Assembly: GCA_964645915.1 (NCBI GenBank)
Contig: CAZYDH010000009.1
Location: 1 to 58,683, forward strand
Length of the DNA: 58,683 bases
Source of the DNA: an uncultured bacterium
GTDB lineage: Bacteria; Fidelibacterota; Marinisomatia; Marinisomatales; JACNKV01
Direction: 5' to 3'
The position numbers and the translations under genes are program-made. Under the pieces are notes generated by a model that was not told the origin of the DNA, made no database searches, and worked only from the letters and a program-made list of their open reading frames with translations. This document shows, piece by piece, positions 11,896 through 12,042 of the stretch. Within the stretch, counting starts at the first letter, position 1. Every line of letters starts with the position of its first letter.

Positions 11896-12042
11896 TTATT
11901 TTTCCTCTATTTTTTCAGTTTTGTCCTCACCCTGAGGATAATGTGGGACTCCTCATGTAGGAACTCCGGCTTTAGGCAGTATGATACGATTGATAAGATA
12001 CCATAAACCAACAATTAAAATGATTGTTAATAAATCGGACAT
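11896..12042 (-). CDS. Unannotated 48-aa single-TM micro-protein, probable selenoprotein (MSDLLTIILIVGLWYLINRIILPKAGVPT-U-GVPHYPQGEDKTEKIEEK)
   Basis: ATG overlaps the DUF6132 stop (TAATG); AAGGAG 11 nt upstream; in-frame TGA at 11955-11953; read-through frame ends 1 nt before the FmdB ATG. Confidence 0.7.
11924..11938 (-). promoter_or_regulatory. SECIS-like hairpin within the micro-ORF
   Basis: Minus strand TCCTCA-GGG-TGAGGA (or 5-bp stem with AGGGU loop) starting after 14 nt from the UGA. Confidence 0.55.

Follow-up and report, generated by a model that had tools for sequence, protein, structure and literature searches.

The stretch of DNA analysed here, referred to as the window, is the 58,683-nucleotide contig CAZYDH010000009.1 (assembly GCA_964645915.1) of an uncultured bacterium of the Marinisomatota (SAR406) lineage, whose genome measures 1.93 Mb and is 96% complete. 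On its minus strand, between the genes of a DUF6132 membrane protein and of a zinc-ribbon protein of the FmdB family, lies a short open reading frame (ORF) at 11896..12042, which begins with an ATG at 12042..12040, is interrupted by an in-frame TGA at 11955..11953 and ends with a TAA at 11898..11896; the frame comprises 29 codons, the TGA as codon 30, which is a candidate selenocysteine (Sec, U) codon, and 18 further codons before the TAA. Translated with TGA as Sec, the 48 codons give MSDLLTIILIVGLWYLINRIILPKAGVPT-U-GVPHYPQGEDKTEKIEEK (MSD…LPKAGVPT-U-GVPH…EEK), an architecture that the orthologues share. Gene callers stop at 29 residues because the thirtieth codon is a UGA, and their product would be a truncation artefact. 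The ORF very probably encodes a 48-residue single-pass membrane micro-protein in which this UGA would be decoded as Sec; that the product is a true Sec protein can, as judged from the sequences compared below, be held with slightly greater confidence still.

The gene is tightly packed among its neighbours. Its ATG and the TAA (12044..12042) that terminates the upstream DUF6132 gene have one base in common, a Shine-Dalgarno-like AAGGAG is recognizable by sequence at 12054..12059 (minus strand), 11 nt 5′ of the ATG, and a gap of 1 nt separates the TAA from the ATG of the FmdB gene (11894); the overlap with the upstream gene, of 1 nt in the window, is of 4 nt (ATGA) in most relatives. The encoded protein has a hydrophobic N-terminal stretch (residues 4-22, mean Kyte-Doolittle hydropathy 2.25), predicted to form a single membrane helix, followed by the juxtamembrane motif LPKAGVPT-U and by an acidic/charged tail. 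The original prediction had listed these elements, from the Shine-Dalgarno sequence to the hairpin described below, and had noted that the frame fills the space between the DUF6132 and FmdB genes only if the TGA is read through; inspection of the minus strand bore out both statements. By these overlaps, the micro-ORF is a real gene of an operon.

Evidence for the decoding of the UGA comes in the first place from related genomes. Fifteen of 41 related genomes gave a match at E<=2.1e-4, each with exactly one in-frame TGA, and a profile of 15 sequences (A1) was searched against a sample of 401 genomes of the phylum. Among the 87 matches obtained, 71, with E<=1.1e-4 and distributed in 69 genomes, all contained one in-frame TGA, and none of the 71 showed a sense codon or another stop codon at the site; the remaining 16 matches (E 3.3e-4 to 8.5e-3; mixed TAA, TGA, no stop) were considered noise and not counted. 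From the fetched loci, 40 unique genes were extracted, including one from a Thermodesulfovibrionales locus, and codon 30 was TGA in all 40, never TAA or TAG. Thus the mixture of stop codons that, according to the original prediction, would have spoken for a plain short peptide was not seen. The residues on both sides of the UGA are conserved as well, with P at -7 in 40, G at -4 in 39, T at -1 in 39 and P at +3 in 36 of the 40 genes.

The frame continues to behave as a coding sequence beyond the TGA. Codons +1 to +3 vary at the third position, the tail motif xVPYxPQxEE is conserved, and the entropies of the three positions of codon +3 (0.45/0.45/1.91 bits) resemble those of the invariant Pro at -7 (0/0/1.89 bits); this third-position asymmetry indicates that the frame is under protein-coding selection past the UGA, so that the codon periodicity of the 40 unique genes agrees with the predicted conservation of the downstream frame. 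Two genomes (G356 and G223) contain two copies of the micro-selenoprotein gene each, on different contigs. One further match (G008:C38:7060-7137, locus L034; E=0.01; …LPKTGIPWCGYPHC…) has its TGA elsewhere in the frame and was not counted as a member; this may be a relative that has diverged or decayed, or a chance resemblance. An Acidiferrales match (L091) was rejected as a chance likeness to the tail, being out of frame.

A second line of evidence is the presence of cysteine (Cys) at the site of the UGA in homologues from outside the phylum. A homologue search with the 48-residue protein returned only the 29-residue stub of the window itself; when 1.84 billion representative proteins were searched with the profile, 407 matches (clusters) were obtained at E<=1e-3, and most of the best 150 of these end at profile position 29, the position of the UGA, being 29-residue stubs. 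Twenty-nine longer matches were fetched, and 24 of them carry Cys exactly at the Sec column (…LNRWILPxxG[IV]PT-C-MSGAC… or …PT-C-AVPQP…); of the other five, three have Trp, one is diverged and one is an unrelated repeat protein. In the resulting alignment (A3), P23, G26, T29 and C/U30 are invariant. The three sequences with Trp at the Sec/Cys column (P0068, P0134 and P0146; …T-W-LSGAC…) probably derive from a TGA that the gene caller translated under code 4.

A scan of metagenomes with the Cys forms detected 332 relatives; the family gene was recovered from 73 of the best 80 loci, giving 62 unique genes. The aligned codon was a Cys codon in 55 of them (44 TGC and 11 TGT) and TGA in 7, and all seven TGA forms are followed, 13-17 nt downstream, by a GC-rich stem-loop. 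True selenoprotein families are typically recognised by such an exchange of Sec and Cys in a single invariant column, and the Sec/Cys pair marks a functional residue. The Cys variants whose presence the original prediction had set as a check were thus found in the protein search and in the metagenomes, outside the phylum; within Marinisomatota, no Cys form was seen in the 401-genome sample. The family is defined by an N-terminal helix, an LPxxG[VI]PT-[U/C] motif and a polar tail, and has no existing family model; its Sec form is present in Marinisomatota and in the Thermodesulfovibrionales metagenome-assembled genome (MAG), and the metagenomic contigs mostly contain the Cys form, C-MSG-x-C. 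For one Cys homologue, the Protein Atlas gives an unnamed cluster (score 0.84), in which Planctomycetota is the commonest phylum among five members with known phylum, a lead on the taxonomy of the Cys forms.

The genome of the window contains all components required for Sec synthesis and insertion, in agreement with the reading of the micro-protein as a Sec protein: selB (371 bits) adjoins selA (523 bits), a tRNA-Sec was detected at 64 bits, and selD has an in-frame TGA of its own (…GSGUACKIG…, G000:C15:10994-11920), a Sec form of selenophosphate synthetase that is already known; all four matches exceed the curated cut-offs. TGA terminates 10 of the 46 long ORFs (>=150 residues) of the window, which argues against a global reassignment of this codon. 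The genome of the Thermodesulfovibrionales MAG with the Sec form also has selA, at 596 bits. In the sample of the phylum, selA is present in 66 of the 69 carrier genomes versus 238 of the 332 non-carriers, a comparison that was cross-tabulated by eye and in which related genomes are not independent samples.

The third element is a hairpin in the RNA, UCCUCA-GGG-UGAGGA, at 11924..11938 of the minus strand (stem 11938..11933, loop 11932..11930, stem 11929..11924), which begins 14 nt after the UGA, with 20 nt between the UGA and the loop. In the model of the bacterial selenocysteine insertion sequence (bSECIS) given in Fig. 2 of a 2026 review (PMC13188914), a stem of 4-16 bp, a loop of 3-9 nt and a G in the first two loop positions are accompanied by a distance of 16-37 nt from UGA to loop and by a minimum free energy (MFE) of at most -7.5 kcal/mol. 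Against constraints i-iv as stated in that figure, the window hairpin has 6 bp, the loop GGG, a spacing of 20 nt and -8.4 kcal/mol (UGA plus 60 nt); 37 of the 40 family genes agree with constraints i-iii (stem, loop, G in the loop, spacing) and 28 of the 40 with all four, to be read with the looseness of these constraints in mind, as 53% of the TGAs of the window satisfy i-iii with some hairpin. In 34 of the 40 genes, 16-20 nt separate the UGA from the loop, and a hairpin of <=-3.5 kcal/mol is present in 29 of the 40, versus 6.0% of all window TGAs.

The significance of the hairpin rests on its conservation across genomes and not on the single sequence. When 39 Marinisomatota sequences were aligned (A2), 87.3% of the cells at the six proposed pairs proved to be paired, versus 46-58% when the 3′ arm is slid; double changes occur in four of the six pairs, with 10 compensatory cells versus 2.7±1.5 in column shuffles, none of 500 of which reached 10. 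Examples are GUCCAG/CUGGAC and CAUCC/GGAUG, which replace CCUCA/UGAGG in genes where the amino acids differ too. The hairpin of the original prediction is therefore present and conserved with compensatory changes; the single sequence does not raise it beyond chance.

The FmdB gene that follows (11682..11894, minus strand; CxxC…CxxC zinc ribbon, TIGR02605 E=1.9e-15, PF09723) ends in …GCSSSGFS-UGA-GGT-TAA, and this C-terminal UGA had gone unseen in the original prediction. The gene is next to the micro-protein gene in 38 of the 40 loci; one locus ends early and the Thermodesulfovibrionales locus has none. All 38 FmdB genes end in the pattern …G-C-x(3-7)-[SG]-G-[FY]-[STG]-TGA-[AGV](-x)-stop, i.e., a TGA, one or two codons and a stop, while C8, C11, C31 and C34 of the ribbon are invariant Cys and the UGA stands at the C-terminus. 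Just 3′ of the stop, at 11661..11680 (minus strand), lies the hairpin UUAAUUGC-GGUC-GCAAUUAA, a candidate selenocysteine insertion sequence (SECIS), the stems of which vary freely among genomes (UUGC/GCAA, UCCGC/GCGGA, CUAC/GUAG, CCUGU/ACAGG, GGCGCC/GGUGUC…) around a constant loop (GGUC, AGUU or GUU); 47 compensatory cells were counted, versus 20.4±3.2 in shuffles, with none of 500 reaching 47. The UGA-to-loop spacing, mostly 15-18 nt, reproduces the geometry of the micro-protein gene, and among the 38 sequences 33 agree with constraints i-iii of the bSECIS figure and 27 with all four.

FmdB-family selenoproteins are described in the text of PMC2398784, from the GOS metagenome, as forms in which Sec replaces a ribbon cysteine (CxxU/UxxU, with UxxU also in PMC13188914). 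The neighbouring FmdB resembles them in belonging to the TIGR02605 zinc-ribbon family, in coming from marine bacteria and in its probable use of Sec; however, compared with the form described there, it replaces no ribbon Cys with Sec, keeps all four, has the predicted Sec in penultimate or antepenultimate position (…GC-x6-8-U-[AG]-stop) and has its candidate SECIS after the stop. No match to the UXX-star models of NCBIfam 20.0 was obtained with FmdB. Judging from its conserved end, the protein is probably a second selenoprotein, a C-terminal Sec form of the FmdB family that is undescribed; this widespread zinc-ribbon family, whose function is unexplained, would have there a second Sec site that had gone unrecognised. 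By analogy, its Gly/Ser tail, which is flexible and has a Cys placed 7-9 residues ahead of the penultimate Sec, recalls two well-known systems, DsrC, the flexible C-terminal arm of which contains two Cys (one of them penultimate), and thioredoxin reductase, with its G-C-U-G end; the folds are unrelated, and the likeness is an analogy, not membership. A scan for split ORFs around TGAs across the window gave only shadow-ORF noise and no further selenoprotein.

Several observations weigh against the reading of the micro-protein as a Sec protein guided by this hairpin, or against parts of it. As a single sequence, an 86-nt segment folds with z = -0.32, a stability matched by 71 of 200 shuffles; 46 of the 2596 TGAs of the window (1.8%) precede a hairpin of like geometry that is no less stable; the window hairpin is short (6 bp, -5.9 kcal/mol); in 11 of the 40 members the hairpin is very weak or outside the constraints, one genus having just UUC/GAA; and the hairpin overlaps the conserved P-Q-x-E-E codons, which confounds its conservation. 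A covariance model of the neighbouring FmdB SECIS (R1) did not find the micro-protein hairpin in the window at E<=10, so that the two hairpins are not established as one RNA class by that route; this model also carried FmdB-specific flanks, and its one match in the window was the FmdB site, at 36.7 bits. The correlation with selA is weak, since 304 of the 401 sampled genomes have the gene and the selA-less genomes belong mostly to two families (selA in 1/37 and 0/33), which are without a strong micro-protein match; furthermore, three carriers (genomes 70, 85 and 93% complete) lack a selA match. Of the C-x4-C motif found in the Cys forms, most Marinisomatota forms lack the second Cys, so that a simple dithiol-like redox centre fails there, and FmdB adjoins none of the 62 metagenomic family genes, which touches the proposed link with FmdB. 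Finally, DUF6132 resembles the new family by its small size, its location in the membrane and a C-x-S-G-x-C motif beside a helix, comparable to the C-M-S-G-A-C of the Cys forms, but it has two helices and the micro-protein one; homology between the two was rejected (hhalign probability 2.9%, 10 residues aligned), and the PF19628 profile of DUF6132 gave no match to the micro-protein (Pfam, E<=1).

Among other explanations, the one that survives best is an addition to the Sec reading, in which the gene would have a dual output and act as a selenium gauge: both a 29-residue and a 48-residue Sec form would be made, and passage through the UGA, set by selenium, would fix re-initiation at the abutting FmdB start, matching the second selenoprotein to the selenium supply. 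Such an arrangement seems improbable, albeit not negligibly so. In 34 of the 38 loci, the micro-ORF stop and the FmdB ATG are -17..+5 nt apart, a proximity that allows coupling of translation; FmdB itself would need its C-terminal Sec, and Sec insertion in bacteria is inefficient. On the other hand, gaps of 11-45 nt occur in 4 of the 38 loci, the wider family lacks FmdB, and in the window a GAGG of its own precedes the ATG of FmdB by 8-9 nt, making independent initiation possible.

Far less likely is a plain 29-residue membrane peptide, for which the UGA would be an ordinary stop, while the conserved sequence behind it would serve the translation of FmdB as a non-coding leader or as an RNA structure. 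Databases do hold the 29-residue form, one such sequence (P0002) being found on 25 contigs, besides the stubs that prevail among the best 150 profile matches; small hydrophobic peptides of such size exist in bacteria, and the hairpin could be a regulatory structure ahead of FmdB. What decides against this explanation is that the stop is always TGA (40/40 unique genes, 71/71 strong matches), that codon periodicity persists after it, that Cys takes its place, with the frame continuing, in 24 of the 29 longer homologues and 55 of the 62 metagenomic genes, and that the wider family keeps the tail without a downstream FmdB. Read-through of the UGA by other means, through a near-cognate or suppressor tRNA (Trp, Cys, Gly, Arg) or a local change of code, is the least probable explanation, as the three Trp-containing sequences and the shortness of the hairpin, which would favour it, are outweighed by the 10 of 46 long ORFs that end in TGA, the true stops one or two codons after the UGA of FmdB, the full Sec machinery of the genome, the specific exchange of the site with Cys, and a hairpin geometry and G-first loop that fit the bSECIS model as drawn in PMC13188914. 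The reading as a membrane-anchored selenoprotein with its Sec by the membrane, which the original prediction had advanced, is therefore the one supported by the conserved TGA, the Cys variants, the coding tail, the hairpin and the Sec machinery.

As regards its relation to known selenoproteins, no model of Pfam or of NCBIfam 20.0 matches the Sec or the Cys forms (E<=1 to 10); the NCBIfam check comprised the window protein, three orthologues and ten Cys homologues, and returned only chance-level matches far below the cut-off, with none to the named small-selenoprotein models (UXX-star, TsoY, hypothetical DG and DF, KCU-star and others). Table 1 of PMC13188914 lists 119 selenoprotein families or subfamilies, and no single-pass micro-protein with LPxxGxPT-U appears among the entries of that table; likewise, passages on the new deep-Sep families and on BSepDB make no mention of such a micro-protein family. 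In the literature searched, including passages of PMC2398784, PMC12013277, PMC13326102, PMC11955535 and PMC5029168, no prior description was found, and supplementary family lists might name the family otherwise. The mechanism, with its UGA, in-frame SECIS and SelB, is ordinary for bacteria, and the family is new by the lists checked. Indeed, the gene shares with the bacterial SelB/SECIS selenoproteins the in-frame UGA, the stem-loop within the ORF, the G-first loop, the Cys homologues and the presence of selA, selB, selD and tRNA-Sec; unlike the listed bacterial families, its 48 residues are below most thresholds for gene calling and family building. This is a selenoprotein family invisible to current pipelines and routinely cut to 29-residue stubs, which reaches across an abundant ocean phylum and, in its Cys form, many other environments; counts of the Marinisomatota selenoproteome would need upward revision.

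That membrane micro-proteins can carry Sec has no earlier case in the literature searched. Larger membrane selenoproteins are known in eukaryotes: SELENOK and SELENOS, proteins of the endoplasmic reticulum that measure 94-189 residues, have their Sec at the very C-terminal end and the SECIS in the 3′ untranslated region. The micro-protein, of which they are the nearest analogues in working layout, would share with them a single N-terminally located helix and a lone Sec on a tail that is cytosolic and disordered; it differs in that its Sec follows the helix at a distance of about 8 residues, and in its in-frame SECIS, and no sequence relationship is claimed.

The gene order in the window is ECF sigma, putative HxxxCxxC anti-sigma, DUF6132, micro-selenoprotein and FmdB with its candidate Sec, with junctions that overlap by 4, 4 and 1 nt and then leave a gap of 1 nt. 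The first gene of this apparent operon (12493..13086, minus strand) codes for an ECF-type sigma-70 factor (Sigma70_r2, Sigma70_r4_2, Sigma70_ECF); the second, which overlaps it by 4 nt (12248..12496, minus strand), codes for a putative zinc-binding anti-sigma factor of 82 residues with the motif HxxxCxxC (HMEECPEC) and no membrane helix, with matches to TIGR03988 RsrA at E=2.3e-4, below the cut-off, and to NF052368 at E=0.013, and none in Pfam; its product may be a soluble redox-sensing anti-sigma factor that controls the operon. The third (12042..12251, minus strand; PF19628 E=1.5e-6) codes for the DUF6132 membrane protein, with a GC-K-SG-T-C motif, which is found also in the operons of the relatives. 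In most relatives, a DUF302 gene lies directly upstream of the micro-ORF with an ATGA overlap (loci L022-L090), and DUF6132, a rhodanese and a DUF1858-like gene (below cut-off) are located further upstream; one class of relatives has the order ArsR-DUF6132-DUF302-micro-FmdB. DUF302 has no match anywhere in the genome of the window, where DUF6132 adjoins the micro-ORF instead. Outside these operons, a Sec form (T-U-MSGAC; L151:390-3579) is located among a rhodanese-YgaP protein, a metallo-β-lactamase-rhodanese fusion resembling persulfide dioxygenases and a TauE sulfite exporter, a neighbourhood that, by its gene content, is a cluster of the sulfide or persulfide detoxification type. On one contig with a Cys form, the gene is immediately preceded by a zf-HC2 anti-sigma; the other contexts of the wider family are heterogeneous.

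These contexts permit a proposal on how the micro-selenoprotein might work. The SelB/tRNA-Sec system would decode the UGA at codon 30, guided by the stem-loop within the ORF 14 nt downstream. No K/R precedes the helix and the 10 residues after it contain 1.8 on average, a charge distribution that indicates an N-out, C-in orientation, with tail and Sec on the cytoplasmic face; a cytoplasmic tail that places the Sec some 8 residues away from the membrane is accordingly the somewhat favoured topology, as predicted from these charges, and would bring the Sec within reach of the FmdB protein, which is signal-less. The Sec could conceivably serve as a redox-active or a sulfur/selenium-accepting nucleophile, an idea of modest likelihood; a role of this kind in thiol or reactive-sulfur stress is suggested by the C-x4-C of the Cys forms, by the redox/metalloid-type regulators and by the rhodanese, TauE and persulfide-dioxygenase-like neighbours. 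Operon control would be exerted by the ECF sigma factor with its zinc-Cys anti-sigma, or by ArsR, and these regulators, together with DUF6132, DUF302 and rhodanese, point to the same kind of stress; the operon context, with redox-sensing regulators, rhodanese, DUF302 and DUF6132, offers a testable clue to what four uncharacterised families do.

A direct partnership of FmdB with the micro-protein in Marinisomatota is a tentative suggestion, based on their adjacency. The flexible Ser/Gly tail of FmdB (C-x6-8-U-x-COOH) would act as a ‘swinging arm’, and a relay of two selenoproteins, speculative to a similar degree, might consist of the membrane-tethered selenol and of the soluble FmdB arm (Cys…Sec), exchanging Se-Se or Se-S bonds or passing on sulfane sulfur or selenium. 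This relay would be the effector end of a stress operon with rhodanese, DUF302 and DUF6132, governed by a redox-sensing sigma/anti-sigma pair (or ArsR). If true, it would provide a function for the FmdB family and a new class of membrane micro-selenoproteins truncated by gene callers.

The DUF1858-like gene in the operons of the relatives (L020:669-866 and L022:227-502) contains the motif CIxCGEP and scores 22.6-27.7 bits versus a cut-off of 32.2; DUF1858 is a selenoprotein family in other taxa, and has Cys in these Marinisomatota operons.

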